Assembly: GCA_051942245.1 (NCBI GenBank)
Contig: JAVECL010000002.1
Coordinates: 62,001-126,000 of the forward strand
Length of the DNA: 64,000 bases
Source: Trypethelium eluteriae
Lineage: Eukaryota
Direction: 5' to 3'
A program made the position numbers and the translations under genes. Numbering within the stretch: the first letter of the stretch is position 1; every line of letters begins with the position of its first letter. Under the pieces are notes generated by a model that was not told where the DNA came from, searched no databases, and saw only the letters and a list, made by a program, of their open reading frames with translations. Of the stretch, positions 3,041-52,898 are shown piece by piece.

Positions 3041-5038
<1,998 letters not shown>

Positions 5039-6840: not shown

Positions 6841-6942
6841 AAGTATTTATGCGCTGTGGTCCTTCCAAACATAGACAACCTCCCTCTTAATACTCTAGTA
6901 CCTCCGCCATCGACATGATTCGTCTCCGGCTATGCAAACATC

Positions 6943-9900
6943 ATGTCTACAACAATTGAGGGAATGTTTGTGCCTGACGATGACGATCTTTCGGTGAATC
7001 CGACGCCGGCTAGTTCTCCAAGGTCACACTATGCTCTCGAGGCCATCCTCGCTGAGAGAGTTGGTGACAATGGAGTCAAAGAGTATCTTGTAAAATGGGA
7101 AGACTATCCACTTCATCGCTCAACGTGGGAACCGGAAGAGAACTTCTCCAGCGACAAGCCTATGTGGGAATGGGAGGACACCAAAGCTAGAATTGCACGA
7201 GGGCTAGAGTCTGCTTTCGCTCTCAACGACTATTACAGAAGCGTTGATGAAGAGTCCAATCGAGTTACCCAGCTTTATTACAGACGACATCAGAAGCGGA
7301 TCAAGAACAACTTGTCTGTGACGCCAGAGCCAGTGGAGAGCGAGGGAGGCGATTCAGAAGCTTTTGAAATTGCCGACTCGGACCCTGGAGTGGAGAATTG
7401 GCCTTCTGAAGACGAGCGACGTCTACTCTCGAAGCATGAAGGGATACTGAAGAAAGGACTTGCCCGCCCGAAGAAGACGCGAGACCAACGTAGAAGAAAG
7501 GTGTGTCCGGGGGTTAGTCCGATGTCCACCTCCTCCGATAGCGATAGTGGTGTCGAGGATTCTCCAGCGATCCCAAGAAAGAAGCGACGCGTGATGTCTT
7601 CCGATCTTGAAGATGAGCCATATGTAGCCTCCCCGGACTCGGTCCTTGAAGAACATCAGGCGAGTGTTAACCAGCAATCTTGTAAAGCAAGTGTAGATTA
7701 TTCTTCGCTCAGAAACAAGGACATTATAGGCAGGAAGGCCTCCTTGGACTCATCACAGAATCTTGTTCTTGCAAAGGAAGCTACAACGCCTATTCTGCAA
7801 AAGAAGTCCAGGTCCGGCTCCGCCACTGGCGCTGGCACTATCCACATTCCCAAGAAATCAACCTCTTTCAGTCTTCTCTCAGGTATTTTACCTCGTCGGT
7901 CTGCTTTGATGAATAAGGTTGTTGCAGAGGAAGTCGTTAGTAGCCCCACTCGAGTAACGAAACGTACAGTCAATAATCTCAGTACGTCAATACTTCTGCT
8001 TCAAAACCTTTTCAGTATAATCATATTCAGGAGAGCAACCAACTTTCTTCCATGCTCTATATCGTAGCGGTGATATGCATATCGACCAAATGGCTTTATG
8101 CACATTAGCCAAACGTATATAATTCTTAAGTTCACTAGAAACCTATGTACACGAGACATCCAATGCTTTCTGCTCATGAAGTTTCTAGGCAAACCAAAAG
8201 GAGCTGGGATTTTTGCTTCCTGGGACGCTCCACGGAAGAAGAAAGGCAGAACACGGCTAGGTCAGGAAACGGCAAATGCAAATGAAGTAAAGAATTTTCG
8301 AACGCTCTCCCAACGACATAGACTTCAGGAATATGGTCGCAACGAACCTCCACCAAATCCAGAACATTTGAACTTCATAGATCTTAATCAGAACAAGCCG
8401 TTCCACCAGGCCATAACAGAGGCCCCACCAGGACAGGTAGCTTTGGAAGCTCAGCAAGGAAGTGTTGCTGATGCTACAAATCGGCCTTCGAGAAACAATT
8501 CTCCTCTACTACCTTCTGCGGTAGAAAGGCAAAGCAGTCCGGGCTTTGTCGATCTTGCAGATGATTCGGACAATGACAGTTCTCCTGTGCCACCTTCTCT
8601 TATCGAGAAGGAAATTCGTCCAAGCCCAACGGCAGGTGGATTCAGGCAGAGTTGGGGAGTAGTATCTAGTGTATCTCCAAACCTTTCGGATCCTCCTGCT
8701 ACCAACCAGGATAGTATAAACTCTACTTGCGATTTAACTCAGTCGATCGGGGAAGCCATCTTCTCCATGCTCGGACCTAGCACAGAAGGATTTCATGATT
8801 CGACAGTGGCAAGTTCTGCCTTGGCAGAGCCCATGCTTAATGCCAGTGCACCATGGACGGGTAAGCCGCCAATGACCTGCCGTCGATGGAAGATAGACGG
8901 CAGCTGCCCATATTCGGACTCACAATGTCCGCTTCAGCATCGTTCACTGCCTCTTGTAGAGCCTGTCGGCGGACCGCCGCCAAAATTCCGGCCTCAGCCG
9001 CAGACCTGCGATTTCTGGTATAAGAAGAAGTCTTGTCACTTCACCCCAGAGCAATGTCGCTACGCCCATTGGAATACCGGCCTCCTTGGCAACCGGTTTG
9101 ACCCACAGAATCCTATACCCATTTCGAAGAGCGCGGATGCCCAACCGCTGTATATTCCCAGAATCTTGAAGACCTGCTATTTCTGGAAGACAAATGGTCG
9201 CTGCATGAAGTCGGATCGCGAGTGTTCGTTCGCGCATTTCCAGTGTGACGAAGATGCCGATCCTCCAGGATCTTGGAGAGAATTAGTGCACACCTCAGGT
9301 GAGTAGCTGCTGCAGAACACACACATACCGTGTGTTCAGTGCGTTGCCTACATATTGAACAACATTCCCAGTCGCCCCGCGTACAGGCATCAAGCCTGCG
9401 GATGATTCTACGGATAGCTCGCCACCATCAACGCGTCTAGAATCCATCTTGCAACAAGACACCATGGGCGAACATGTAATGGCGACGTTGTGCGTGCCAA
9501 TGATGCAGGAAAGTCTAACAATATTGCAAGTCCTTATGTTGGGCATGGAGCTTGGCGTCAAGAACGAATTCTTGGCTCAGACTGGAAATAACCCTAAATT
9601 CCTTCTCAAGCATATGTGCATGTCGGAAGACTACAGACATCATGTCATTTCTGTAAGGCCGTTCAAAATCGAGATAAAGACATCACTAATACCATACATC
9701 TAGCGGAAGCCAACGTGCCTGGCGAAAGGAGAAATTTCCCCAATTGCAGATACGAAACTAGAAGATTTTGTGCAAAATCTCAAGTTACATTCCAGCGCAG
9801 CTCTATACTACCATCAAAACTTCACGATGACTATCTATCCAGCAGATGAGGAATCGTGGAAATTCTTACCCACGAACAGAAAGACAGCTCCAGAGGTGAA

Positions 9901-18667: not shown

Positions 18668-21119
18668 ATGGAATCCCAGAATCATCCAGAGCCTTCAAGC
18701 GCACAGATTGGACTTCAGTGTCAAAGATTTCAGGAAGAATTAGCACGGAGTACGTCACTTTCCCCAGCTGGCTGGATCACTACCAAGCTGACACCTGAAA
18801 TAAGGAGACGAGCGATTGATTTCCGTACTATGCAGAAATGTGGAGCTGGAAGCTGCTTTGATGGAAAGTGTAAGGCTCAAAAAAGAGGTTCAACGATTAA
18901 GATTGCAGCTTGCCGCCCATCACGAACAAGCCTATTCCCAGTCTGGTCCGCCTCCGTCTTCAGGAATGTCGACTGAAGCTTTCAACGCGTTAGATGCGAT
19001 TCTGGAACACCATACGCCAGAAGCCGGGACAGAAGCCGACGAATCAACAGAGAATTTTCTTAGTCCAGTCAAGAAAGTTTCAAGAGTCTCCCGCAGCGTT
19101 GAGATAGAACGCGACCTCTATAAGTCTGCCTATCAGCAGATTAAGGAAAAATACGTGAAGCAGATTCATAGTTGGAAGAAGTGGCAGAATTATTACAATG
19201 CCATCGGTGGGCAGAGTCTGAATGGTAGATCCACAAAGCACCCCGAGGTTGAGCATACGGAACCTGTAGCAACGGAAGATGCCGCTATGAATTCTTCTCT
19301 GCATTGCCATCACATCCCAATGCATGATGATTGTCTCAGAGCTCCTGCCCGCCTCGAGCAGAAACCCAGGCAACCATTCGGGAAACGAGCCGCACCATCT
19401 ACTACTCAAGGGACAGAGGAAACGGGGTCTGATTTGCACATCATTGAAAGTCGGACATCTGTAGGTCTTGTTGAAGATGACATGCCTGTTGTAGTCTCTG
19501 AACGTCCCCTTAAACGCAAGAGAAGAAATGCAGCAAAAGAGAGCAACAAGAAAGCAGTCATTTTTAGAGGCCTAGGTAATAGTCAAAACAAACCTGTCCA
19601 TATCAAGGAAGAGTACTCTGACTCAGACTATCTTTCCAAAATTACTCATCAAGTGCAACGGACCGAGACTCTTGATCTTGACGGCTTGGGTTCTAAGATC
19701 ATCACTCCTAGAAAGCATCAACGCTTTCAAGCATTGCTGGAACGGACACAGCGTGAATCTTTTCGGCAGAGGGCTTTACAAGAGTTGCGTCAGGAGCGTT
19801 CTACAAGCCTGCCCGTTGACGTTCCTGTGCGATCGAGCCAACTCTTCGAGATCCACAACACCACCGAAATGGATCTCTCCGCCGATCACAACAATGCCGT
19901 AGACAGTGTTCTTGGGACTCGAGGGATTGATGACCCTCAGGCGACTAATGATGTGGTAGGGGCAAGCAGTAGACTCACTCGAATCAACCGAGTGAGTGGC
20001 GTTCTTGATCCGCTTAGTCCCAACGTATCAATCACAGCTCTTAGGCCAAGAGCAAGTCTTGTCAGAAAGGGATCGTCGAATTTCCAGGAGGCGGGCACAA
20101 GTGCCGTTTCCCTTGTGATAGAGGATGGTGAAGATACGTCTGTAATAAAACAGAATCGAAGAGGCAGTTGCAGATTGGCAGCTGCAAAGCTGCGTACGAT
20201 GCAAAGAAGTAGTAGCGATGCTATCGATGAAAAGCATGGTCGCCTGCAGGCATTGCTCAATACATCGTCCTCTACTCGTTACCCGTTATCGGATCGGACA
20301 ACATTTCATACAGACAGGCAAAGCACGATCCAAGGTGGGATGTCCAGATACCCTCAGACAGGTGATGATCGATCGGACCTGGAGCAAGAAATTCATGAAA
20401 TAAAACAAGAAAACGACGTGGGTACGTCGTTGCTGCGAGAGGGTGGGAACGGTCGAAGGCAAACTTCAGCAGCCAACAAGCGACAAGCCCAGAACGATGT
20501 TTATGAACGTCTAGCCCCTCCTCCACCTCCACCTCCGCCAGGGGGTACTCCTCTGCGGCTCCTTCCCACGCTAGCTCTTAAGCTTTCCGACTTCAAACCG
20601 AATCCCAGGACGAATCACGAGCTCGACTTTGCCTACAAAGAGACGGTCCGCTCTCGTCTTGGCCGACGCTGCCTCCCTGGCTGTACCGACCCGACCTGCT
20701 GCGGCGCCACTTTCCTCCGCCTTGCAGAAAACGATGTTCTTCCTCCCCGAGAGCCCGCCCGTGGTCTCTGGGAGAGCTCGCCGTCGCCCGACTCAGCAGA
20801 AGCCGATATGGACACGCGCCTGCTGGCGGCCTATCTTGGCATCTCGGCTGAGGCGGTGGGTTGTCTATCGGCGGAGACGCGACAGAAGGCGTTAGTCCGA
20901 GCACGCGCGGAGCGTTTCGCCAATGAAGTCGGACGTCATCGGCAGCAGTGGGCGCGGGCTCGATCGCCGCCGGGGTTCTGGAATGCGGACTTTCCGGGGA
21001 CGCAAACGCAGGAGAGGGAGAGGCAGGAGGCGGAAGGGAGAGAGCGGGAAAAGATAGAGGAAAGGGCGAGGGAGGCAAGGCGGGAAGGGGGAAAGTGGAT
21101 TTTCAGGGACGAGGCTTGA
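18668..21119 (+). CDS. SAE2: DNA end-resection factor Sae2/Ctp1/CtIP (intron approx. 18750-18803)
   Basis: N-terminal coiled coil; C-terminal SAE2 domain with DFKPNP, CLPGCTDPTCC, GRHR and SPPGFWNADFPGTQ. Confidence 0.9.
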
Positions 21120-25900: not shown

Positions 25901-28116
25901 TCCTACTGCTGTCCTGGACCTCGGATGTTAGAAGCGGAGGATGTTAGTAATCAGCTCTGTACTTTCCATTTAATTTTACCCTCCTCTCCGGACAACCATG
26001 TACATGATATCCGGTCATGGAGCGATATGAAACCGAGCGTTTCCTTACAGTGGGGAAATTCTGGCAATAATAGTGTAATAAATTACGCCATGTAGTTATG
26101 GTTTTGGTGTAGAGGCCAGTAGAGTCACACTTGTTGCTATGTGTACGGCTTTCTATTATTATTATAGGAGGCAGTAGACTTAACGTTACTCATGCAATTG
26201 AGTGCAGATTGAAACTCTTCTAATGTATCTCAAATTATCTCAGTCTATCTTGTAAATTGAAGCGCGGCATGTCAGTCTCTTTCAATGTCCTCGGCAAAAT
26301 TCTCCTAAAGATGTGTAAGTGTCATATGGCGGAAAGAACGGACGTATTTTTCTAGATTATATAATAATTCTTAAATTCGATAATTTGCCTTCGGGCATTT
26401 GGTCATATTGTTACGATACAGAGAAGATTAGCATGGCCCCTGCACTAAGGATGACACGCATAATCAAAGAGAAGCTACAGAATTTTTTTGCCCGTAGTTT
26501 ACCCGAGTTTCCAGGTTCGATCCGAGGACTCGGCAATTGGTTGTCCCCATTTTGCTCTATTATTTTTTGCTTTTTCTCTTTTAGTGATTATCAATCCTTG
26601 TTCAGCATACTATTGCCCCACTCATATCCGTATAGTCACATGGGCATCCGGACTCTCCTGTTGGATACTCTACTGCACAATTTTCTGCAGTGTCAAGGAT
26701 GACGATTGCTGGCTGTGTTAAGCTGCCAATGTTCACTGCCATTGGTAAATTCTAGAATGTACCTAACACGGATGAAGGTGGGTGTGAAATATCCAGATAT
26801 AGAAATGAAGGACAGCGATATGATACTTTATTGATTTCTTACCGATACCGCGCCTCACCTCGCCCCCGGCGCCGCGATATAGTGCTATCACAAGCGGATA
26901 GAGCGCTCCAATCATAATTCTGTACTTCACTGGCGAAGTCATAAGAGATGAAGTATTGCATGGTGCTTCTCTCACCCCCAATATCTCTCACTAGATTGAT
27001 CCTGCCGTTGTCGGCTAGGTTAGGCTATACGGGTCTTTCCGTTAGCCATGTTGATTGACGCTTGTGCATCCTTCGAAAATTTTTCTCATTGAAAAGTCAA
27101 GCTATCGTTGACGTATTTCGGAGCTAATTACTTCAAATGCAAAGAGAAGGAAGACTCTTACGGTGCTGTGGCCTTCGATCATCGTCCACGACCGAGACAA
27201 CCGACAAGCGGAGGCCCATCCTTGCGAGCTTGGTGCGATTACCTCCTTGAGGGTTAGGTTATAAACGCATTCTGATTGGATAAATGGGACATTGTGCTCG
27301 CACGTAATAAAGACTGGTATGAAGAAGTTGCGTCAAGAAGATGCTGTTGGCTACATACACCAAGACCCAAAGATCTCAAATTAAACTTTGAATGTCAAAA
27401 CTCGAATCAATGGGCCGAAGAGCTCGCAGAGCACTGGGCCGTACGCAAGATCCGATTGATAAACGCCTCGCTAGCTCTCATGCACGAGGAGCAAGGTAAA
27501 CACCAATACCCAAACTGCTGTAAAACGAATGGGCTTGCTCTTCGGATCTAGAGCACATGAGAAACGAATGCGAAACCTTACTATACACAGTTACTGTGGC
27601 TCCCTGTGCTGCTTGGCTGATCCAAAGCCTCGAGCTCTGCTCAAGGACTTCAACGGCTAGTGAAGCAAAGCTTGAACGCAGGAAGACAAAGTAAACAACG
27701 CTGGAAAATACTTCAGAATCCACAAGAGCATCAGGTAGGGTTCGAAGCAATACATGCAACTGCAAATACGAATACAGGTTCCAAAGAAAAGCTAGACGAG
27801 ACATTAATGCTCAAGCAGAATTGACAACAGATACTGACTGAAATAAGACATGGTATCCCATCCAGCTGTATCCTTCCATCTTCGTCCACGGAGTTGATTA
27901 GCCACGCTTCCAAGACAAAGAGACGCCACCGCCATCGCCATTAATGATAATGGCATCATCGTACTCTCGTTTTCATCATCATCGCCATGCATGCGTCCTG
28001 TGAGTCCACATGTAAAAGAGAAAAGAAAAGGGGGTAGATTTCGAGACCAAGGAGGTTGAAGAAAGCGACGAATAGCAGGCTAATACGGGTCCATAGACTT
28101 GTTCTTCAAATTTGCC

Positions 28117-29285
28117 CTATTCTCCACTACTCTCAGGAGTGTGAAGCCTCTTCAACGGTCTACAGTCCTCGTAGTCCTGCAGGTAGCCAGTATGGATGCT
28201 GTCATCGGTAGCACTGTAGGGCCTTTTCAGCGGAGGTCGCGTCCCATTCTGGCCGAATGGCTGGCACCAAGGAAGATTGGATGTCTCGCTGGGAAGAGCT
28301 TTGACGCCGTCTGTTCGACGGCGCGCGGCGGAAACAGCGTAGCTGTGTCTACGGGCATGGGATGGAACGGACGCTGGCACCATTCCCGGCGGTGAAGCTA
28401 GCGGTGAAGGGCCCGCATTCGAAGCATATCCAGAGTAGTGGGATGGCATGACTGGAGCAGAAGCGGATGACGTGTTTTGCGGGACAGAAGGAACCGATGT
28501 AGAGAGGTTCGACAGCTGGAATATCGGTACGTTGGCTCTGGTGGCCATTTCATGCTCGCCCAGATGCCAATGCATGGCTTCAGCTGCCCTATAGGGCATG
28601 CAGAGCTCTTTAGCAACCTTCTCCCACATCTCCTTTTTGAATCTGTAGAAGTGTCAGAGAGGAGATCGAGAGCAGTGACATGTACAATGTGTAAATATGA
28701 GCGCAGAGGCCTGGCAACGTACCTTTCGTACAGCCTCGCAAGCTTATTCTTCTTCTCTTCGTCCCATTCCGATCGCCTCTCAATGTAGTTTTGGTATCGC
28801 AGCCGGCAGCTAATTGCACTCCTTCCGGGAAGTCTCTTCGATATGTCTTCCCATTTCATTCCGCTCCCTCGAAGCTCAACATTCAACGCATCCTCTTCGG
28901 GGGTCCATTTTGTCTGCTTTTTTGCCGGCGAAGCTTCACTTGTCGAGGCACAGCGTTTGGCCGACCCATTAGCAAGAGCAGCGGCAGCAACTGGTCCTAG
29001 TGATGATGTCGATGATGAATGCCGGTGGTGCATGTGGTAAAAGCCATTTGGAGGACCAGAAATGGCCTGAGAAAATTGCTGTGGTTGTTGCGCGTTTTCC
29101 CCAAATGACGCTGCATAGTCTGAGCCAGCAATAGAGGTGGGAGTACCGTATGCATAGGCCGCACCGTTGGTGTTGGAGCTCTTATATCCCCTCGAACTGG
29201 CTGGTGAAGAAGAACGTGATTTGACGCTCACCGGGCCTGGCGGCGACACGGGAGCGCGTGAATCGAGAAGTAGGGAGATATCCAT
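28117..29285 (-). CDS. Myb/SANT-domain transcription factor, 2 exons (intron 28722-28643)
   Basis: KWTPEEDALNVELRGSGMKWEDISKRLPGRSAISCRLRYQNY and WDEEKKNKLARLYER|FKKEMWEKVAKEL...RAAEAMHW; N-terminal MDISLLL. Confidence 0.9.
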
Positions 29286-31815
29286 GTTTACGATTCCCTA
29301 AAATAAAAGAAAAAAAGAGAAAAACAAATGACTGGGCGCTTCAGTCAATAGCGATATCTTGTCCTTTGGAAAATAAATCTCGTCTTATTTCTTGGAGGGT
29401 TCTGTAAGAAGAAACAGCCAAACGGATTTGAGAAATATGTTCGCCAGGAAAACGAGAGTTCGACCGGTCCCGAGACGTCCCGTACTAGAGACACTACAAT
29501 CACAGGCTTGGTTGGGGTATGACTGATGATGTTTCTTGTGGCTCTTGTTTATGCGACTAACAAGTTTGCGGCTTATACATCAAGATTCTAGATTGGTAGA
29601 TTCCGGTGCCTTTCCTGCTTCGACTGAGGTTCCATGCAGGCAGGAGTAAGAAAAGCGGTACGGATAGTTGTTTCCGGATAGTTGATGAGGCTCAAGACGA
29701 AACCTGGTGTGTTTTGGAACGACAGAATATGGCGTCACGAGCGTAGGGATAAATGTAATACCAAGGAACACCGAGGGCGTTCTGGTGAGACGGCGGAACA
29801 CTCAAGGAGAAAGTATAATGAAAAGATATGAAAGCGGTGGAGTTGGCCTTGTTGTAAGGGGTTGAGCGGATGGGATCTAGCGGTCCCTTATGCAAGAAGA
29901 AGGTCGATTAAAGTCAGAGCCAGGCGAAGATGGAAGGGAAATGGTGGCAATAGAAGTACGGTATTGCTCCTATGCTAATCGAGTGACGGTGGTTGCTCGG
30001 GCCAGGCATGGGGTGTGGGGGGAGGAGAATTGCTTGATTCAAGACGCAAGAGACATGTTTGAGATGGTGCTGGACGCATGCGATTCAACGAACAGAGCTT
30101 TCCCGCGGTACAATCGCACAAAACAGGTGGCCAGCACCGGGCCCACGCCATGGGGTTCCATGCTAAACAATGGCCTTACGACCGGGATAGCCTCAAGATG
30201 CAATGGTCGGATGTGGCTAGTTCGAATACCGAGTAGTTGTCGATCAGGCAAGCAAGTTTGGCCCGCTCGACAGTAGACCCTTGGCCCAGCCTCAACTTAG
30301 AATGACGTTCTTCCCGCCGGATCGGCAGCGTCCACCACATGCTCCGGAAGCTTACTGAGGTTTAGCGAGGGTTTGGTGCCAGAAGTGGATGGTATTGCTG
30401 CCGCCAATGGCTGGAGCTCCCTGTCAGGCGTGTAGAGAGGATGTCGGTGAGGATGCTTTCGTGCCCGATTCGCAATTCCAGATTTGGATACGAATGCAAT
30501 GTGTAGGCGAGCGGCAATCTCCAGGGTGGCGGGCCCCAGATCTGTGAGATGCAAGCAGCGGAGATGCACTCTGCAATATTACAGGGAAGAATGATGTCCA
30601 GTAGAGCCTGGTTGAGAATGGCTTGATGTTTCGTCTCGTGAGCATTCGCCAATGGTGATGAGGAGATTGGCGTGCATAATGGCGGTGAAACAGCGGCATA
30701 ACGAATAGTTGACTTGTTGAAGGGATGGTAGGATGTAGGCGAATCGGTTTGGTCGATTGAATATTCGAAGAGTGGCCCATTTTGGAGAACTGCGCCGAGA
30801 GCTACCAGAAGTGTCTCGTTTGCATCCTTACTCCCACGTTGCGATGGCTGCGCTAAGATGTCAAATCTTGGAGCGACCGAGGGGCAAAAGGCGTGTCAGC
30901 TTGCTTTGGTAGGGGCGCCATTTGGGCTTCAAAGTCAAGAAGGTTCGGAAGGTGTTCCAGCAGGGGGTTTCCCACAATAGCCGCGATTCGATTAGCACAA
31001 ACCTTGGCGAACCTTTTCGTATCCGGCAGCGCGTCAGAGAATGCATGATGTAAGGCTAAGCAGGGTCTACCAAATTCGTTGCAGGCCCGTCGATGACGGG
31101 CCACTAACGCTGGACGTAAGGTCGAGCAATGGGAGCAGATAGCAGATATCCGGCAGCAAGCTATTCAGTCACCAACTCACCGACTCATGAAATTACTGAG
31201 AGCCTCCTGAGAGCCTGCCAATGCCAACGATGGGAGCATCTACCCATTCTACCCGCGGTGCCGCGGCTCCCCTGCAATCGCGACATCCATTATGTGTTTC
31301 GTCACCTTGGCCATGCAGTATGTACGGCACGCACGCACCCCTACGATACTCTAGTCCATGACAGTGGTGAGCGGCACACCCAGCGATGCCAGGCTGGGAA
31401 CGTGCGGGATTCGCGCTAGATCACTTGGCTCTAGTTTGCGCATTGCATACCATTGATACATAGTAGGCTTGAGCCATGATGATGCTGCGAGGGGGTACGA
31501 GAGGCTCAAGTCGCGTAGGGATAGACTACTTATCACGCAACTATGAGTAGGGCCCGAAGCTGCCGAGCCAAGATGCGACTCAGGGCGCATGAGGAGAGAA
31601 ATCGGGGTTCCAGGGCACCTGGGACAGCCGAGACACTCCACACATGTCAAAACGAAGAGACCACCAAGACGATCTTCCTCGGTAGGAGGGCAAAGCATGA
31701 AACGTTCTTCTCAACTCGAGGCAGAACGGTGCTCCTTGCCAGCGGTTTCGGCCACTGTTCCCACGACCTGCAAGGAGAAGCTGACTGCAGCGGAAAGTAC
31801 CCACGTCACACACTA

Positions 31816-31844: not shown

Positions 31845-32666
31845 GGTGCTGGGGTAGGTGTTCTACCTAGTTTAGCTCATGATCGCTGTGGTGGCTATCA
31901 CAATCCAGGGGCGGCGGAACCGGTGGGAGCCCTACAGGCCGCCTTCTGCCAAATCGGTGCTCTACAGTTGAACGGCAAATTCCTTGCAGCGGCGTCTGAC
32001 CGACGAAATGGCTTGAGATCCCTAGACAAACTCATCGCCATGTTTGGCAGTATGAAGACATGCCCCATGCGAAATGCAACATGTAGTCGAAGAGCTTTAT
32101 TGCTTAGCATACCTGTCTACCTAAGTTACCTCAAGTGATATTGGGATATCTCCATCGCGCAAGTTGGAGTGTCGTGTGTGCCATTCGTGCACATGATATA
32201 ACCTTGGGAATTCCATTTGTTTTTTTTAGGGCAAGGGGGATCTCAGGGTTTATTTGGCAAGACAACCACCACAATTCTGCATCCTTCGGCCAGTGCCGAA
32301 TCAGATCAGTTTTTGCTTTTGATCTATAATCGTGTGGCTGTTACCCCAGATGGAGACAGGCGACCAAGCACCAAGGGATGAAGGGACCGACTACTTAACG
32401 CTAAATACAACTACGGTACTCGCTACGAGAGTAGTGACGGCACGAAGTACTTATGTGCCTTACTACCATGCTGCCTCTTGGAAACCCTACTACGATTGGA
32501 AACCCTACCGCTTATTGCACGCCAGACGACCGAAACCTAAGTGTACCGCGGCTATCCCGCACCCGCTCGGGACAAAGACCCGCGAGAGCACCTAAAGCAC
32601 CTAAGCACCTGAAGGGGGTAAGCAAAACCCCCCAAGCGGCGTCGATCTCGTCCCAAACACGTTCCA

Positions 32667-33695
32667 ATGTCGCACCGGGTAGCTACGGACATCCCATTAC
32701 TTGTTCGCTCAGAGAACACATCCTCAGAGCGGCGCGTCTCACCATCATGGACCATCTCTCACTTCAAGTCCCGGCTCGAGCCTATCACTGGCGTCCCAGC
32801 TTCGTGTCAAAAACTTACTCTGGGAACATCCCATCCAGACCGTACATTGGAAGTCGAGGATGAGGACTCATCGAATGTGCAAGACTGGGGTCTTCAGCCG
32901 TATTCCGAGATCGTCGTACGTGGATTTTGTTTGATTTCCGAACTCTATGCCGACCATAATCGATCAAGACGCATTTGCAATTCTGTCTTGCATTCATCTA
33001 GCCACCTTCTCGATTGCCTTTGCGCGAAGCCTTACGCCTCGACGATGGCGAAGGCTTAATCTCACGTGCCGCCACGTGTGTTCTACTGCAAGTTTGGTCT
33101 AATTAATCTGTACCTCGGCTAGCGCCGAATCTTGCAGCGCCACTTGACGCTTTGGGCTGCATAGAGTCGCTGACTTTTCCATGAATGATACTTATTTCCG
33201 CCATGTTAGGTCCAAGACACGCGGCCCACTTCAGCCCGCACCAATTTCCATGATCTAGAATCCGTCAAGAAATATGAGATGCCGACAGAGCAATACGAAG
33301 CCCGGCCTGACAGTGTCCTGGCCTGGAAGCGATCGCAAAAGCTTGGTCGCTTCGACCCTAGTGCACCCAGCCTGGAGGACCAGAAAATCCGTGCACTTCG
33401 GCGGGAGGTGGAAGAGAGGGGAGTCTCTACCGGCAGACGCTGTCATCTGCTGCCAGTGACGGATGCTCGACGCGGAATCGTCAGCTACATCGGAGACGTC
33501 CCCCAAATTCCGGGTGTTGGCACCTGGGTGGGCCTAACTCTCGACGAACCTACTGGCAAGAATGACGGTTCCATCGGAGGCCAGCGCTATTTCGAGTGCA
33601 AGATGAACTGTGGGATCTTCGTCCGGCCCGAGCGGGTTGAAGTTGGAGACTACCCTCCACTGGAAGATCTTGACTCGGAAATGGAGGAGATTTGA
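32667..33695 (+). CDS. ALF1: Tubulin-folding cofactor B (ubiquitin-like plus CAP-Gly), intron 32916-33209
   Basis: SERRVSPSWTISHFKSRLEPITG ubiquitin-like domain; CAP-Gly WVGLTLDEPTGKNDGSIGGQRYFEC...GIFVRP; ends EEI*. Confidence 0.93.
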
Positions 33696-33958
33696 GCGGG
33701 CCGGCAACGACATCAGTAGCGAGGGGATCCGATAGGATCAAGATGGCTTCAGTAGTCGGTCGAATTCTAAATTCAAAGATACTAAAAGCCGCATCACCAG
33801 AATTCCATGCTAGACGTCCCACAATACGATCGAAGTAGGTGCACTCCGCAGAACGCCCAACTACCTGCCCTAGGTATACCCAATCCGTCCTCCGTATAGA
33901 CAGAAACATGAAACGTAGCCACATACCCGGTCATGCATGCATCCATTCGAAAGCGTAA

Positions 33959-36900
33959 TTACCCCACATTCTCTTCTTCTGTCGAGGCTTGCATTACGCA
34001 ACTTTGACCAAAAAAAATCTTTGCCTCGCTTGTCGTACTCTCGTTACGGATGGCGTAATTGTTCCCTGCATGCACGTGACGTTAGTCTATATACACTGTG
34101 CAGATGCGCATTATAGGAAAACAAGGGAAAAGTAGTACGAAAAAGGAACAGCAGAATTGGGATGCCCCCACGAAGACCTTCGGACCAAAGCGGCAGTCCC
34201 AATAGGCGACTGGGCAGGCGAAGCCGATCACTCGGTATCGCACCGAAGCAGGGTCTAGCCCAACGGTTTGAACGTGGCCAAACACATCCGCATTACGACA
34301 GAGGACCGAATAGCAGTATCCAGATTGCTTTCGCGTAATGACGCAGGAATCGCGCAGGGGATCGGTTACGCTTATAAACCATCCGGTGCGGCCATCCGCT
34401 GTGTCACCCCACGAAGAATGTGGATGACTGGCCAAGACGCAAACACGTCGATACGTTGATGTCCGCAAGCGAAGACTGATAAGGTGGACAACGCCCCGAG
34501 GAGAAGAGGAAAAAGAGCAAAGGCACGTCATCTTCTCGTGACGACACTCCGAAAAGACCTCGATCCGGAAATGGTAGAGATATCGGCCCCCCACGCTGGC
34601 AAAAGCTTCCTTGTGCAGAATGGATGGATGCAACAACAGCAGAAAAACGACAAAAACCCCACGCCTTCCAACGTACCTCTAGGAACTTGAAATACGCCCC
34701 CCTTCCCAATGCTGAATTCTTGATCAGCCACCTCGACTCTGACGCGTCCTGCATGCATGAAGAAGACCATCTGCATCTTTCTGGAGTTCTTGCTCCTCTT
34801 GAAGCCATTGGGAGGCAACTCCACCATCCCACATCCGAAGAAGGGAAGCGCCATGATCTTGGCGTACCGGAAGTTGGCCGACGCGACGTTTCGGGTGACG
34901 ATCGAGGTCGATGCAAACGCGAGTTCTAGATAGCGTAACAGATCGTTAGCCATTGCTGTCCGCTTGCGTAGAATGGAAACGCCGCCTGTCGACGATTATG
35001 GTGAGGATGCCGCCACAACAATATATCCCCACGACCTATGGAAGTTTTGGAGCACAATCACACATACCAGTCTGCACCTCCTCCCTGATCCCAAGCTCCA
35101 GGAAATTGTCATATCCCCTCACCATCCCCGTCAAGATGCCCCCACTCTCTTCCCACTCTTCTAAGTCATCTTCTTCCTTGACCTCCTTGCCGGCTCTCCT
35201 TCCTGTCCCCCTTTGCCCCCGACTCCCTCCTCCAGCCTCCTCCTCTACACTCTCCAGCCGTGGTCTCCTCCTTCTATCCCCTCTCTCCTTCCTTCTTGTC
35301 TCCTCGATCTCCACCTCCTCCGCTCTTGTGACCCCCGTGACCTGTCCTCGATGATATTCATACCCCTCGTTCAACCACCACTTGAAGGGCTTCACGCTTG
35401 TCCGTCCTGACCGCGTCATCCGCGCCCCGTCGTCTTCCGTCGGGGTTCCCTGACGAAGAAGCGTCAGGCTGCGGGCGCCTGGCCGCTTGAAGCCGGCTGC
35501 TGTAGATGGCACACTAGAGCCGGCACGCGAAGTACCGCGCGAGGAAGGAGCTTTGTAGAAGGCATCGCGGTCATGGGAGGATTCCTCATCATGCTCTTCA
35601 GTATCTTGGCTGCGGGTACTGGATAGGGTTTGGTGAGCGGGAGAGACGAGTTGAGCGCCCTTCTGACGCTTGGTTGGTGGTTGTGATGATCCTTTGGCAT
35701 CTTTGCGGGGTCGACCACGTTTTTTGGTCAAGACTCGGGGTTGTGAGCGAGCGACTTCTTGGACAGGGTTTATGTGGTTGTCTTCGGAGTGGTCTCGAAC
35801 CCCGTTCTCAAGTGGTAAATCCACTTGCGTCTCGTCTTGTACGTCGCTTTGGGTATCAGTCGCTTCGCCGGCTTGTACCTTGGTCGTGGCATTTTGCTTT
35901 CCGTTCAAATCCCCTCGTGCATTTTGTGCAGGCGATATCTCGTTTAGAGTATCGTCTTTTTGAGAAGCCTTTGCCCCACGCTTGACTTTCTTGTCTGACT
36001 TCTTCCGTGGCTTCGGCAAGAAATCAGAAGGAAATCGATTTTCTTGATTCTGAGATTCACCACCAGCTTCGTCATCATTGTAGTTTTGCTTGCTTTTGCC
36101 CTTTCGTGCAGGCGCTCGTTCCGGTGCAGAATCTTGTACTTGTATAGGCATCGGCATAGGGTCGTTTGTGGAATCATTCTGCACAATTTGCACCGAGTCA
36201 TCTTCATTGGAAATGGGAAGACTGCGGTTCGCATTGTCATCAGCCTGACCCTGCGACTCTTCCTTTTCGTATATCGAGTCAATCTGACCACGCGGTTCTG
36301 GTAACGGTAAATATGTAGCAGTAGGGCTGTCTTGAGTACCCTCCGCGGTAGCGTTCAGGCGCGTGATAGATCGTCCATCAGGACTTTGCTCGATGCTTGG
36401 AGTTATCTCGTCAACGGAATAGTCGAATTTGCGATTCACTGTGGTGGGTGGTGTTACGCCATTTGGTGTGTGCTTAATGCGGGACGGCGGTCCGAGAGAA
36501 GGCGGCCTTCTCGGTGAGGAGCCAAGTGCTGTCTTCATCGGTGAGCGTCCTGGAGGAGGGATTCGGTTGTTGAAATTGCCAGTGAGTCTCTTCGCGCTTG
36601 GATGGTTGACCGGTTCTATGATGGGATCTGCGGCAGGCAATTAGTTATTATTCCATGCGTAACTTTTCAATTATTAAGATCAAATTCAAGTTCACTGACT
36701 TTGCGCGGCCTCTCTAATCTCAGAAGATGGCTGCGTTTTGTTGCCAGTGTGGTCCCGTTTGGGAGGCGACTTCTCGGGCGATGAGAAAATTCCGTCGATT
36801 GGTTCGAGACCGTCTGCATCTCTTATGCCATTATCCTTCAGTGTGATTCCAGTTTTTCTATCAATATACATCAGAGACCAGACCTGTTCTGGATGCCATC

Positions 36901-36983
36901 AAGAGAGCCCACCTTCCCTGCTTCCCCACATCAAAGTATATGTTGTCGCGCTTTTTGCCCCGGGGAGTTATCACAGGTGCCAT
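33959..36983 (-). CDS. MIF2: Inner kinetochore protein CENP-C/Mif2; exons approx. 36983-36913, 36857-36700, 36627-35068, 34925-34677, 34065-33959
   Basis: Mif2_N-like FDVGKQGR|KTGITL...DGLEPIDGIFSSP; AT-hook KRGRPRK; CENP-C motif TRSGRTSVKPFKWWLNE; cupin FFGCGMVELPPNGFK...FQVPR|GNNYAIRNE...KIFFGQ. Confidence 0.92.
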
Positions 36984-37189
36984 GGTGCGTTGGTTGGCGG
37001 AAATAGTCTGAAGTGGGCGCGAGCGACTCATGTGCAAAGAGGGTAATAATGATACTGTTATATGTTTCGGGCCTTAAAGAAGCGCTCTCAATGCATTTTC
37101 GGGGGGAGTTTGTTCTGTAGCCATGCACGCCATGTTGATGCGTCGACCAAAGGCAGACTAGCCTGCTCCGGCCCGCTTGTCGATCTACA

Positions 37190-37213
37190 ACGCGCTCCGA
37201 CGCGTCACCGCGT
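37190..37213. promoter_or_regulatory. MCB-like cluster in the MIF2/RNH201 bidirectional promoter
   Basis: ACGCGC (37190), ACGCGT (37200) and CCGCGT (37208) within 24 bp. Confidence 0.55.
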
Positions 37214-37343
37214 GTTCCACCATCGCAACGGTCAAACCCGTCCCTGTGAACTTTGGAAATCATTGAGCAAATGAAGACTCGGCCATCCCTTGGTTCTGTT
37301 CCATCGCCATCTTTAACCTCTGTCTTTCCGTCCTCGACTGATT

Positions 37344-38546
37344 ATGGCAGAAATTGAAGCTCAAGAGATTCTCCAAGACTCTCAAGACTTTACCAAAGAA
37401 ACGATACCAGAAGACGTTTTCGTTGCGCCATCAATCAACCATCGTGAAATATTGTCTGGCTGCTCGTATTCACATTTCTCACCTCTCCCAGAAGCTCTTG
37501 GCAATGGTATGAACACTGAGTGCGTAATTGGCATTGACGAAGCAGGGAGAGGACCTGTGTTAGGTAGAAAGCCCCTTGAACACATTGCAACATGACTGAT
37601 GATCTCTACATATACTTGGAACCCATACTGACAGTACATTAGGACCTATGGTTTATGCTCTTTTCTACTTGCCTCTGTCCCTTCATCATTCTCTCCTTGC
37701 CGAAACACACCATTTCAATGATTCCAAAGTCCTTACCCCTGCCGTTCGCTCATCCCTAATGGAAAAGCTTTGCACTGGCAACTCAGATTTATTCCGCCAG
37801 TGTGGCTGGGCTACTACAGTCATGTCCGCACGGGACATCTCCGCGGGAAGGCTAAAATCAGTTGGAACGTACAACCTTAATGCACAGGCGATGGATGCTA
37901 CAGTGGAACTGATGAAAAAGGTTCTGGATATGGGAGTCAATGTCAGAGAAGTATACATTGATACGATTGGGAAGCCAGAGCATTACCAGTCGAAGCTAGA
38001 GAGGATATTTCCAAATCTACAAATTACCGTCGCCACCAAAGCCGACTCGTTGTATCCGTGCGTTTCGGCGGCTTCAGTATGTGCGAAGGTTACACGTGAT
38101 GCTGCACTGGACGTATCCTATGACATATATAGAGAGGAGGGGGTGAAAGAGTAGGCAAACTCTGCTCGGAATTTGCAAGTACAGTCTGCCAATACTGACT
38201 CTTTTTCAATAGTTTTAAATCAATAGCCACGGACTCTCTGCTCGCACAACCCGAATGGGGCTCCGGCTATCCATCGGATGCGCGTTGCTCCATGTGGCTG
38301 AAACATCGAATGGACCCTATATTTGGTTGGGGGCCTGAGTGTAGATTCTGTTGGGACACCGTGAAGAAAATGCTTGATGCCAAAGCTCCAGCGGCGCACG
38401 TCGACTGGCCTGTGGAGGTCGAAGATGACAGTATGAAAGTGACTAACTACTTTTCCGGAAGCGCGGCGGCCGGAGAGACTGAATCTACCGAACAAGACGA
38501 GTTGTCAGGATGGTTTGGAAGACGCGTTTCTGAGCCTGTTTTTTAG
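37344..38546 (+). CDS. RNH201: Ribonuclease H2 catalytic subunit A; introns approx. 37563-37642 and 38151-38212
   Basis: GIDEAGRGPVLG|PMVY, DSKVLT, YIDTIG, KADSLYPCVSAASVCAKVTRD, WGSGYPSD. Confidence 0.95.
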
Positions 38547-46853: not shown

Positions 46854-49800
46854 TTACCGCGCGGCAACGGAAGGGCCTTCCTGAACGTGATATTGCGCCA
46901 TCTTACTGACCATTTTTGAGAAATACTGCATCACAAAACTCTCCCTGACCCAAAGTTAGCAACAGGCAAGGGGGGCCTTCCTTCGAAGAAAATCACCAGG
47001 ATACTCACGTATAGTAACTGTGGTCAGCACTATGGCTTTCTACCAGGTTATGTGCCAGCTCGTGGCACAACACCACCCACCAATAGATCAACGCTTCCCT
47101 CCTCCCCTCCGTCCGTCCCTCAACCCAGCTCCGCCAGTGTAATTGCCCGAAGAACCGATAATTGCAGAATAGGCTTCCTTGCCGATTGAATGCAATAGTG
47201 CCCCCCTTTTCGTCGTAGAAGACATGCAAACCCCCTGGCCGAATTCCAAATATGCTTCCACAGTCCAGCAAGAGCACCGCAAACGCATTAAGCCCCTCTA
47301 CGTTTGCGGCCGCAAATTCGGATTTGTCGGCGATGGCGTTCGACATGAAGATCTTGATCCCGGGAGCCGAAGACCCGTAGTACGAAATATCTTGTCCTGG
47401 GGAGGTGTCACAGTAGGACGCCTGTTCCTTGATGACATTGGTCGCTGGGGATGAGAAGACAGAGGTGCTGTCGTGCGAGCGCGAAGCGTCAATGGCATTG
47501 AGAAGGTTCTGATATGTTGCATGCGGGGCGGTTACGGTTTCAGGGTTGCCAATGGAGCTCTTAATGGCTTTGGTGGGTTTACGATGAGAGGTGTCGTTCT
47601 GGGTATTGGGTGGCGGTGTGTCTTCGGATTCGCGTGACGTTTGATCTTCCGTGGCGGTGGATTGGGATTGGCTCCCGAAAATGTTTTGGAGTTGCCTGGA
47701 GGTGCGGTCGTCGTCGAGACCGAGGGTGCGAGTGAGATTCGAGAAGAAGCCTTTGTTTCTTGCGGGGGCCAGAGGAGCTGGCACGGATGGCGGGTGTCCA
47801 TCTGGCGTATCCGAACCGAACGCTCCCGGCATGGCCTCAGCAGGATTAATAGACTTGCGACTCTTTCCGGTATCCTTTTCTGAATGCACCTCTGTCCAAG
47901 CCTGCTCCTGTTCTCTGAGGCGCTGCTGCTCTTGGTCGATTTGCTTCTGCCGTTCTTCTTCCGCAATGCGTGCTTCAATGGCTTTCTGGCGTAAAATGCG
48001 ATCCGTATTGAAGCCCTTGGCTTTGAGCTTACGAAGATCTGTAGTCAAGATCATCTCCAGCGCCATATAATCGTTTTGACGAGGCTTCCTAAGAATGAGC
48101 GGTAGCAATTCCCGACTAACGTCGAACAAGTCGTATTTTGGGGTCACATGTAACACCCAGCCTCTCCGTGACTCCTTCTCAAGAGCGGCTGTCTTCTTCA
48201 TTGAAACTTTAAGATTGTACCCACGTAGACTCCTTTCGACCGAAAGAGACTGAACTGCTTCAACTAAGAGATTCTTCTCCAGCCACCTGGAAGTGTGGAG
48301 AACCACTTCAGAGCTCTGTTCATGCAGAAGCAGCCTTGTTCTCTCCAGAACAAGGCTACATAACCTGACTGCAGAATCTTGATCTCGGGAGCGACTACCG
48401 GTCCGAAGATAACTCTCAACCAGAGAGCTTAGGTATGGCGTGCCCAGTGCGGAATAGAAGCGCTCTATCACGTCCTCTTGTGGGGCAGCTCGCAACTTGT
48501 CGTAAAAGTGTCTGTAGATGAGAATTTCGTCAACAATGACAATGTCGCTCGCGCTCGCAAGACCGAACTCTCGAATAGACTCCTCATCCTCGGGATCATC
48601 GTAGTCATCATCTAACTCCTCGTCAACGCCTTTGCCCGACTTCTTGACCCGAGGAACTTGCTTGTATGACAAAAGACATGCCGAGCGACGTAAATCTTTC
48701 CAGAGCTGTTTGTCAGCCTTCAGTGTAGTAACGTTATCAGCCAGTCTGCGGAGCATCTCCAAGTATCTCTCGTGACTATCGAAAATTCCCAGCAGGCGCG
48801 CAGGCTCTCGTGCAACCAGAGCTGCAATTTCGACGCTGGTAGGCTCCTGTTTTGAACCGACTTTCAGCAAGAAAGCATTTGCTTCTGGTCCTAAATCGAC
48901 AAAATCGAAGATATCGCCATAAGTGACACCGTCCCCGAGAAAAACAGACTTGGGGGTGGCATGTCTTAGAGCGGAAGGATTCGGCTTAGTGGATTCATTT
49001 TTAGGGGCTTTGGTGATGGGAACTATTGCACACTCCCCGAGTTGTCCGGCTAATGTACCCTGAATCTCGTTAAGTCTTCCAGCCATATAGCCAAACACGC
49101 CTCGGGCTTCCGCCCGTGTTTGTGGCGGATTTTGGGCTACCTGCCTTGCAGCATCGTTAATGTGGGGATCGGGAGCAACGCCAAGCTTCTGTCCATGAGG
49201 GTGAAGATCCTGCCGCAGGATCGAGTATCCAAGTAGTGCGGCATTGGTGTTGGTAAAGCAAGAGCTGGGACTGACCAGTTTCGACAATTTGCCATCCGAA
49301 AGGGGCAGGAAAGGTACGTCTATGCTCGACAGATTGATTTTGAAATAGTTATTATTGGAATGATTGATGATGAAATAGTTCAGGCTATGCTCGTAGCGCT
49401 TAACATCACCACGTTTGGCGGCTTTGACCATTATGTCAATGAGCTCGGGCACAGATGGATATGGTTTTAATCCGAGGAAGGACATGAATTTGCCTTCTGT
49501 AGTGGACGAGTGATACAGACCAGGCCATTGCAGGATAGGTAGGTCCAGGGCACGTAGGTCATTCTTCGGTTCAAAGAGTTCAGAAAGTTTGAACAAACGA
49601 TCCGGTGGTGGTTGCTCGTTGGAGCCTTCCGCGGGGCAGATCGCAGCGTTGCGAAGCCTATCTATGTCTTGCTTGGGAATGTCGTCGCGCACAGAGACCA
49701 GATACCTAATGAGGTCGACGTGACTCCATTTGCCTTGTGTTGCCTTGTCAGAAGATGACTGTGCCATAAGTCGGTCAAAAACCACATTGAGCTCAACCGT

Positions 49801-52227
49801 CTTGCGAACACCAAGCGCAAGCAGAAACTTTTCCTTCGTACCATGTAAGCCATGAATCGTAGGCAAGTCATCGAATAGCTTAACAGATGCAAAGTACGAT
49901 TCAGGAGGTTTACGTAAGCCTTGCTTCGTGGGTATTACAGTTTGTGACCGAAGCAGCCCTACAACTGTCTCTTTAGACGATTGGCTCAAGGCATCCCAGG
50001 CCTTTGAGAGAACGGGCAGTATTTGTGCGGCAAAGGATGTAGATGTTGTGATATTTTGTTCTGGGTCAATTGCTCCTGCACTCGTAACAATGAACTTCAG
50101 CCAAGGTACAACCTGAAGTTCTTCCCAACCAAAAGCCTCCAATGTACTTCGAGCAATACCTTTGGAGAAACGCAACGGGATGGTATCCTGGGGTATAGGG
50201 AGCTCTGCTGGTATCTTCGAAGGGATTTGGAATGCAACGATTTCGCCAAGTACCAATACATTCCCCTTACTGGAGCTACCCTGTGTACCGTTCAGAGTTG
50301 CAACAACGACGCTCATGAGCGTCTTTATGGATGGTGGATCTAGTTGGCCGGTTGAAATTTTAGTTCCTGCCCATTTCAAAAATTCTACGAGCTGAGCTTC
50401 GTTCAAAGCACGTGCTTCGAGCTCATTTTTGATGTCCGTATGAGTTATTTCGGTTAACAGGCCGAAATCCCGCAATTTAGCAACGAAGCCTTTCGCCCCT
50501 TCAGCTAGTGCTTGGGGGATCACGGGAACGCCATCAACGAAACTGAGATCTTCTGTCGCGATACGTACCCGATGGCTGGGCAATACACCCCGCGTTGACA
50601 AGATATCGACGGTAGCGTTTGTATTACATGTCCAGAACGCCTCTTCAATAATCTCGCCAACTTTGGAGGAGGGTGTGGATTCCTGGCAAGTATATTGCTT
50701 TAGTGTATGTATCGCAGTCGGCAGCAGCTCAGCAATTTCCGCCTTTTCGATGCCGCTTTTGGATCGAGCGACGTCTGCGTGGCGTTGTTCAAGCCTGGTC
50801 TTCAGATCTGCCAACTCGCCTCCGTATGCTATTCGGCATGCTATGCCAGCCACTCGAAGCATCTCAATGTTCCACGTTCGGACGTACCGCGCATTAAGGT
50901 CAATACTTTCACGCTCTACGGTTGGTATGACTGAAGGGGCGGAAATATGCGCGAGCAGTCCTGTTGTTTGCGCAGTAGGAAATCCGATGAAAATCCTTCC
51001 ATTTCGCGTAGGAAGCACGGAGGCAAAGATTTCGCCTGCTTTTTTTGTGCCTGAATTGCCCATCGTGGACATGGATGCTACCGTTTCGTCATGGGGCGAA
51101 GTTAGGATGGCAATCCTGGTATGCTTTGGAGGTGGTTTTTTCGTTGCACGTTCCAATTCTTGTGCCAGAGCCTTGGGGACATAGGTCTGAATATTAACAG
51201 TACTTACCCGAAGGAAAACTGTGGCCTGACATTCGCCTGCGAGATCTTCGGCAATCGCACGCTGCGTAGCTTCTTCCTCTCTTACGGCCTGCTTCTTGGC
51301 AGCATTTGCGCTCGAAGAGCTGACGTTCAGTCGTGAGAAAAAGCTCCGCAGCGAAGGGGTAGCATCGCTTGCGTTGTCCGATTGGCTTAGATCTGTCGAC
51401 TTCACCAGAGACCAACCGACAATATTAAGCCATCTAGCATCGATCTGAGCGCTCTGATGTTCGACACCAACAATCTTCATCAGACCTTCTTGGGTTTTGA
51501 GATTAACTTCTCGTGGGAGTTGAACGTCCGCTCCAGGAGCAGTCTTCTTTGTGAGCAGAAGGAGCCTCCACTGGTCCAGATAGAGTTCGATGCATTCCAG
51601 ACCAACAAATGTGAGACTAGTACTGAGGAATTGACATATTGACATGAGATTTGGTACAGGCGAGCTTTGATTTCGGTAGTCAAGGACGAACGCGGTTTCA
51701 GGGGAGACCTGCTGGGTCGGTACTTTTCCCATTCTCGTGAACAAGCTGTTGCCCTTCCAATAAAACGCCATGGTCTGCTGGCCTGAACTGACGAAAGGTG
51801 TCTCACATTCCGAAAAAACGCTGTAGAAGCCCACACCAAAAGCACCAATCTTTGTTTCATCCGGATTTCCTTCTGCAATACGCTTGAGTCTTGCCCAATC
51901 CGTTGACGCAAATGCTTCGCCGTTATTTTTGACTGTCAAACGCTGTAATGTATGATTTAGTAACGTATGCTTGAGGAGGACTGATGGCTCGGTTGCTTGA
52001 GGGACGGGAATATTCCGAGAAGGTAAGGTTTCGAACTTGATGATGACTTTGGTTGCTTGGGCGTCGGCGGCGTTTTGTATTAGCTCACGAAGTGTCGTCC
52101 ATTCTCCGGAGTAACGAGCAAGCACTTTATCGATCAGAGCCCGTGTATTTACAGTGACAGCCTCCTCCTCGCCACCAGCGCCCATGGTCTGTTCGCGAAG
52201 GCGGGCATAGTCAATACCGTCTGCCAT
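46854..52227 (-). CDS. Large (approx. 1770 aa) sacsin-like GHKL ATPase protein with C-terminal HExxH motif (DUF3684-type); single intron 47008-46945
   Basis: RELIQNAADA, NNGEAF, KIGAFGVGFYSVF, IFIGFPTAQTTGLLAHISAP-IPTVERESI; C-terminal LCHELAHNLVESH; last exon ESFVMQYF...VAAR*. Confidence 0.85.
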
Positions 52228-52898
52228 ATTTGGACGCGATGGAGGCTGGGTCGGAAAGATGGAGGAGTCCGAGCGGACAAGATGACAGGCCGATGTACAG
52301 CAACTTTGTTCCGTCTAGCGTCTAGATTTCACGAACAGAGCGAGGAGTGACTGCAAGTGAGCGAGGCAGTTTTCTAAGTCTAGGTGAGAGGCATGGGTAC
52401 GCCACTGACGGATACTGGTGTAGCAAATACGCCGAGAAATGCTAGCATAAAACCCACAAAACACCAAGGCGAAAGAAAGGAAGGAGGTTCAAGGATGTAG
52501 AAGACGTTTACGGTACTGAGGGTTCCGTGTTTGTAGTGTTCTTTCAAGTGCTCAGGTCTCCAAGACGATGTCATCACCGGAGATCCGTGCATGCAGCGTA
52601 CCTCTCACACCTCTGTACGGTAGCCCAGCCCTCCGTACAGCAGAGTACTAGCTAAGGGCTTAGCTCGCGCCAACCAGCGGAACAGAAGCATCACACGGTA
52701 CGGAGTACGGAATACATGCAACATTCATCCATTCGCCGCGGTGACGGTTACTTTTTCCAAGAAGCTTCTACTGGCTTTTGCTGCTGCGCCGCGAACCCTC
52801 AAGGCGCAATGCGCACATTGATCGTGACCATCTTCACAAACATATAGCACCATCCTTTCATTCCTCGGCCCACTCATCATTACCTTCCAAATGTCGCT

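Follow-up and report, generated by a model that had tools for sequence, protein, structure and literature searches.

The long last intron of CENP-C in Trypethelium eluteriae and a constrained non-coding element in its fungal orthologs

How cells keep CENP-C at the right level is, to our knowledge, poorly understood, and the Mif2/CENP-C gene (MIF2) of Trypethelium eluteriae raises the question whether a long intron could have a part in it. The stretch of DNA analysed here comprises 64,000 nucleotides (contig JAVECL010000002.1, positions 62,001 to 126,000; hereafter the window, in whose coordinates all positions are given). The cupin of Mif2/CENP-C, which is its dimerisation domain, is interrupted there by an intron of 611 nt, for which an original prediction, made from the letters of the DNA, had proposed a structured non-coding RNA or a splicing switch.

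The MIF2 gene and its fourth intron

MIF2 lies on the minus strand and has five exons, which encode an open 714-aa protein without internal stop. The coding part of exon 1 (36913..36983) and exon 2 (36700..36857) are supported by the gene model and by contig matches; exon 3 (35068..36627), of low complexity and with an RGRPR AT-hook-like word, follows from the gene model, as does intron 3 (34926..35067, 142 nt), where a loose contig end at 34926 matches exon 3. Exon 4 (34677..34925) is identified by a contig and by its match to PF11699 (CENP-C_C), which recovers the C-terminal cupin at 85.7 bits against a cut-off of 29. Exon 5 (33959..34065) supplies the end of the cupin (GNNYAIRNE...) and the stop, as evident from the gene model, a contig and homolog tails. 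Since the upstream exon covers PF11699 positions 1-65 and ends at position 65 of 85, intron 4 splits the cupin.

Intron 4 (34066..34676, minus strand, phase 1, GT-AG), defined by the sequence, the spliced joint and the gene model, has the features of a U2 spliceosomal intron. Its GT donor lies in GTACGT (34671..34676) and its YAG acceptor is CAG (34066..34068), both seen in the sequence and at a contig joint; a CTRAC-type motif, CTAAC (34081..34085), is read from the letters and presumably serves as the branch point, as in the fungal consensus. A contig of a relative (~90% identity) joins 34064 to 34676 with CT..AC ends and skips exactly 611 nt; the contigs come from one sequencing run, taken to be RNA by guess. 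Neither a retained nor an alternatively spliced form was seen among them, although contigs cannot show retention to be absent, and their lack of coverage of the intron says nothing for or against an intronic RNA. The 611-nt intron is real and is removed from transcripts, and the splice motifs, the divided PF11699 match and the contig joint agree with the original prediction of an intron splitting the CENP-C cupin. Its size had been put at about ten times the usual; it is far longer than introns 1-3 of the same gene (55, 72 and 142 nt), but the factor is 4-11. Retention would, as had been predicted, truncate the cupin in the reading frame, adding by translation 49 residues and then a stop (34528..34677, minus strand), a tail unlike that of the orthologs.

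Some further observations concern the gene and its surroundings. By motif spacing, intron 3 is ~50-60 nt in most orthologs, compared with 142 nt in the window, and is missing in three loci (L002, L004, L007) and in Leotiomycete-like loci. Several public MIF2 models (P0021, P0037, P0040, P0047, P0056, P0081) end in an intron read-through or at an internal acceptor, not in the GNNY exon; these odd ends are probably annotation errors due to the long intron. In the window (32622-38154), RNase H2 is divergent and tubulin cofactor B (TBCB) convergent to MIF2, an order kept in many Pezizomycotina loci; the arrangement RNase H2, MIF2, TBCB recurs with 22 loci matching upstream and 25 downstream. Elsewhere the window holds a U6 snRNA gene (26387-26486, plus strand, 85 bits, matched without an intron), a single-exon frame of 1769 codons that encodes sacsin and DUF3684 domains (47005-52314, minus strand), and chromodomain, SAE2/CtIP and Myb-domain genes (6919-9306, plus; 18804-21119, plus; 28398-29297, minus).

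Length and conserved blocks of the orthologous introns

Orthologs were collected by a metagenome scan in which 135 stretches were confirmed and 80 loci kept; eight of these 80, without a resolved acceptor, were dropped. A GT follows VPR-G in all 80 loci, and the position of intron 4 is kept in 72 of the 72 loci with a resolved acceptor. When identical introns were counted once, 53 distinct ones were obtained, of which 16 measure 46-63 nt, 13 measure 121-316 nt and 24 measure 415-721 nt. The 24 long introns form nine clusters, one of which holds 11 of them. L028, a near-copy of L024, was excluded from the constraint, consensus-fold, motif-pairing and leave-cluster-out analyses.

In a tree built on 116 columns, the short introns fall mostly with named Leotiomycetes, and the long ones fall with Aureobasidium, Cladosporium or Friedmanniomyces, or are unplaced; three short introns (61, 63 and 121 nt) stand among Dothideomycete-like rows. 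The labels 'Cladosporium-like' and 'Aureobasidium-like' used below are taken from this tree. The neighbouring TRS120 gene has its nearest named relatives in the Trypetheliaceae and shares only ~40% identity with other Dothideomycetes, so that the Trypetheliaceae source represents a long branch. In protein searches no relative exceeded 77% over the cupin, and no close ortholog intron is therefore available for comparison.

The long introns contain ordered blocks, beginning with a 5'-splice-site-like motif, YCG|GTSWG, followed by clustered TGTGYRAC sites. The word TGTGCGAC occurs in 8 of the 9 long-intron clusters and is missing from the window. Counted on either strand, TGTGYNAC is found 50 times in the long introns (13,585 nt; the introns are not independent of one another) and 19 times in the flanks (205,574 nt), a density in the introns about 40-fold that of the flanks, where it is 0.09/kb with promoters included. 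In a leave-cluster-out matrix score, whose seed pattern was picked on the same data, 8 of the 9 clusters reach 11/300 shuffles or fewer, and the remaining one, L009, stands at 46/300. YCG|GTSWG is sense-biased (12 sense and 4 antisense, 1.6 expected) and in 10 of 11 sequences lies 5' of the first motif; its information content is just above control (12.8 vs 11.3-12.0). Motif profiles give weak cross-cluster matches among the orthologs, with best E values of 2e-5 and 0.002.

Three introns of medium length (L039, L044 and L036; 142-316 nt) carry one or two motif copies, at 7, 16 and 9 of 300 shuffles, respectively, and are possibly shrunken forms of the long intron. In the intron of L004, CGGTGAGAGAA is present three times (2730-2745, 2830-2845 and 3195-3210 of that locus).

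Constraint is clearest in the Cladosporium-like cluster, where 178 of 719 intron columns are invariant, with 10 runs of six or more, as compared to 36 of 686 downstream columns and 5 of 25 four-fold sites. The other two clusters display a smaller contrast in invariant columns, their downstream control being conserved as well. No conserved read-through frame is seen in the orthologs, in which it extends over 21-239 aa with block spacings that vary modulo 3; a coding alternative C-terminus was rejected on the lack of a conserved frame and of a Pfam match to the intron ORF. Short or non-conserved ortholog introns had been named as evidence against the original prediction; many are instead long (24 of 53) and carry conserved non-coding blocks, an outcome in favour of a functional element. 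Judged from these alignments, the long ortholog introns hold an undescribed constrained non-coding element.

The intron copy in the window

The minimum free energy of the window's intron is −195.9 kcal/mol, with a z of +0.10, and of +0.14 in a second run (34 of 60 shuffles as good). Sliding-window folding gives z values no lower than −1.8 for the sense strand and −2.0 for the opposite one. Perfect local stems of 5+ bp number 19 against a shuffle mean of 16.8 (35 of 100 shuffles having as many), those of 6+ bp 4 against 4.3 (58 of 100), and those of 7+ bp 3 against 0.9 (6 of 100). The intron had been described as structured; comparison with shuffles places its folding at chance, and structure beyond chance, as modelled here, is not supported for the window copy.

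The accompanying claim that the intron is full of local stems stands for the letters, in which all five named stems are present, but not for their pairing. Four of the five pair at 0.05 or less, the mean pair probabilities in the full-intron ensemble being 0.00, 0.05, 0.00, 0.02 and 0.89. The sole named stem predicted to form is TTGGGA/TCCCAA (34157..34202, minus strand; p 0.89, local z −1.6), and a central rod of three 5-bp helices (34318..34425, minus strand; p 0.94-1.0) is likewise predicted. The stems listed originally differ from the ortholog element. Base pairing between introns 3 and 4, which would loop the cupin exon out, was also considered and rejected, as 37 of 40 shuffles were as good.

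Motif searches of the window's intron gave a similar outcome. No match between it and the orthologs was found by BLAST, nhmmer or covariance model, ortholog motif profiles did not match it, CG|GTSWG was not found in it, and Gibbs motifs in it were no better than shuffles. The covariance model of the Cladosporium-like core, run against the 24 long loci, matched only its own cluster, and the composite block-2 pattern gave one match in the window's own genome, which is the control level. The sole strong match to the motif of the orthologs, TGTGTCAC (34400..34407, plus strand, hence antisense to MIF2), scores 10.2 bits and is not significant alone, since 41 of 300 shuffles are as good. Group I core, HDV-like and TPP look-alikes, noted by eye against consensus sequences, were dropped as not conserved. 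The word GTTCAAACC (34263-34271, minus strand), which we take to fit the Pol III B-box consensus, is by eye not conserved in the orthologs.

The window's intron appears to be a positional ortholog that has kept its length while its motifs have diverged beyond recognition or decayed. Decay is the substance of an alternative that we regard as rather unlikely, in which the intron is a neutral relic in the window's lineage, long by descent and constitutively spliced after loss of the ancestral element. Every test on the window's intron at chance is what such a relic would give, the relative's contig is spliced, and in other lineages the intron has shortened to 46-63 nt. Against it, 611 nt have been kept while the sister introns measure 55-142 nt, and on a branch as long as this one (~40% TRS120 identity) divergence can hide homology.

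A possible splicing-control element, its alternatives and known systems

The reading we prefer, tentatively and with somewhat less than even confidence, is that the CENP-C intron may carry an undescribed cis-acting splicing-control element, diverged or decayed in the window. In many Dothideomycete-type fungi the last MIF2 intron, long and without a coding frame, would then be under selection and would harbour a cis element that works within the pre-mRNA. In this scheme a local hairpin may sequester a decoy 5' splice site (YCG|GTSWG), repeated GUGYRAC/GUYRCAC sites may pair as helices or bind a factor, and the two together would delay or redirect removal of the intron. An mRNA left unspliced or wrongly spliced would lack the last part of the dimerising cupin and be broken down or inactive, and in this way the element would set the dose of CENP-C. 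The read-through peptide is not conserved, so any switch would act on the amount of mRNA, not through a designed short isoform.

Folding of the orthologs bears on whether the element is read as RNA. The consensus fold of the Cladosporium-like cluster has z −3.9 on the sense and −1.1 on the antisense strand, and that of the Aureobasidium-like cluster −2.3 and −1.4. In the former, 96.8% of cells are paired and 5 are compensatory, a result equalled by 1 of 500 shuffles; covariation is thin (3 of 56 pairs compensatory), and the control used ignores relatedness. Variable linkers on average fold no better than shuffles, and single ortholog cores have mostly weak z values (3 of 13 below −2.2). The donor-like motif sits in the 5' arm of a hairpin whose 3' arms differ in five clusters, and 1 of 11 local hairpins at this splice-like motif falls below z −2. 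Complementarity between motif pairs is matched by 2 of 500 shuffles for Watson-Crick pairs and by 46 of 500 with G-U.

A DNA-level cluster of transcription-factor sites, such as an intragenic enhancer or antisense promoter of the Ndt80/VIB-1 family, in which the helices would be paired inverted motif copies, is distinctly unlikely. The motif does occur in both orientations among the orthologs (12 and 9 for TGTGYNAC), with variable number, spacing and central bases. TTGTGYRAC, in our judgement, is similar to the Ndt80 element GNCRCAAAW read in reverse, and in two loci (L014, L021) the variants match that element exactly. Against a site cluster stand the rarity of the motif in the locus flanks, promoters included (0.09/kb), and invariant runs that reach well past the motif, with better folds for the sense strand. 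The motif is also unlike the Sak1/RFX motif GTTGnCntggcAAC as given in the available text of PMC4538799.

A trans-acting ncRNA absent from Rfam and freed after splicing, including an snR30/U17-like H/ACA RNA, is quite improbable as the intron's cargo. A core of ~300-400 nt with invariant blocks, variable linkers and a long-range closing helix, two of whose pairs are compensatory, would suit such an RNA. Rfam covariance models (snoRNA, riboswitch, ribozyme, RNase P/MRP, SRP) gave no match to the window's intron at E up to 10 and none in 12 ortholog loci, the searches being blank at E 10 and at E 1; the structured ncRNA proposed originally thus finds no support as a known family. The snR30 box m1 is AUAUUCCU(A/G/U) and m2 is AAACCAU, the latter invariant in 14 of 14 species in Table 1 of PMC7601244. 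The window has look-alikes of both (m1 7/9, m2 6/7), but m2 is altered and AGA stands where the terminal ACA box is expected after the 3' hairpin; this identity was rejected, and in the long orthologs m2 is found in 0 of 24. Box C occurs in 1 of the 24 long orthologs and a telomere template in none. Moreover, the element is missing where the intron is short, and an essential RNA could survive there only by moving. Pattern searches of the window's own genome for snR30 gave four matches, at control level and none convincing; an exact m1 and m2 lie 61 nt apart at L084:1501-1590, at control frequency and with no ACA at the expected place.

A transposon or introner-like remnant within a normal intron, for which length alone speaks, is hardly credible and largely refuted, since the intron is single-copy in the 29-Mb assembly, has no terminal repeats and no Pfam match to its ORF, and occupies an ancient position at which orthologs are long and constrained, even if diverged copies could lie below search sensitivity; the transposon match that would have counted against the original prediction was not seen.

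The preferred reading of a splicing-control element extends to a bolder form, which is improbable: the Dothideomycete CENP-C intron would be a fast-turning RNA switch of decoy donor and GUGYRAC helices, read by a factor, possibly CENP-C itself, that holds back the cupin's last exon and keeps the dose of the kinetochore scaffold in range, the window copy being functional and fully re-written. The weight of the argument lies with the orthologs, the window copy by itself being weak evidence. A constrained element in an intron that splits a dimerisation domain is compact enough to be deleted in fungi amenable to experiment (Aureobasidium, Cladosporium), and lineages with a naturally short intron serve as controls; a DNA site cluster, if that is what it is, would define an unassigned fungal motif.

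Several known systems invite comparison. Detained introns with decoy splice sites, as in OGT and SF3B1, also have a conserved donor-like intronic element and a proposed control of dose by incomplete splicing; those are animal introns, whereas retention in MIF2 is proposed only. TPP riboswitches control alternative donor use. The fungal TPP riboswitch is located in an intron (PMC5640933, as far as its available text goes), and the introns concerned are likewise long, with an internal 5' splice site beside a folded element; the MIF2 intron, in contrast, has no TPP aptamer match or ligand, its host is a kinetochore gene and its donor use is predicted. The snR30/U17 H/ACA snoRNA, as far as PMC7601244 describes it in the part available, shares with the window's intron its length range and two look-alike words, but the intron fails the m2, ACA box and conservation tests. 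The Ndt80 MSE and the Sak1/RFX X-box (the latter in PMC4538799) also consist of short sites that recur in either orientation close to a gene for chromosome segregation; their consensus differs at key positions, and the MIF2 sites lie in the last intron, not in the promoter.

The titles and abstracts of the literature searched describe no intronic control element for a fungal MIF2 gene. A close parallel is provided by the conserved intronic RNA motifs of fungi (Li and Breaker 2017, PMC5640933; Gao et al. 2021, PMC8216456), whose main texts make no mention of MIF2 or CENP, though their supplements could list the locus; the five genomes queried by Gao et al., according to the main text, include no Dothideomycete. 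The MIF2 element, which shows weak covariation and turnover between orders, shares with those motifs, as their main texts present them, non-coding conserved blocks, predicted structure and a proposed control of host splicing.
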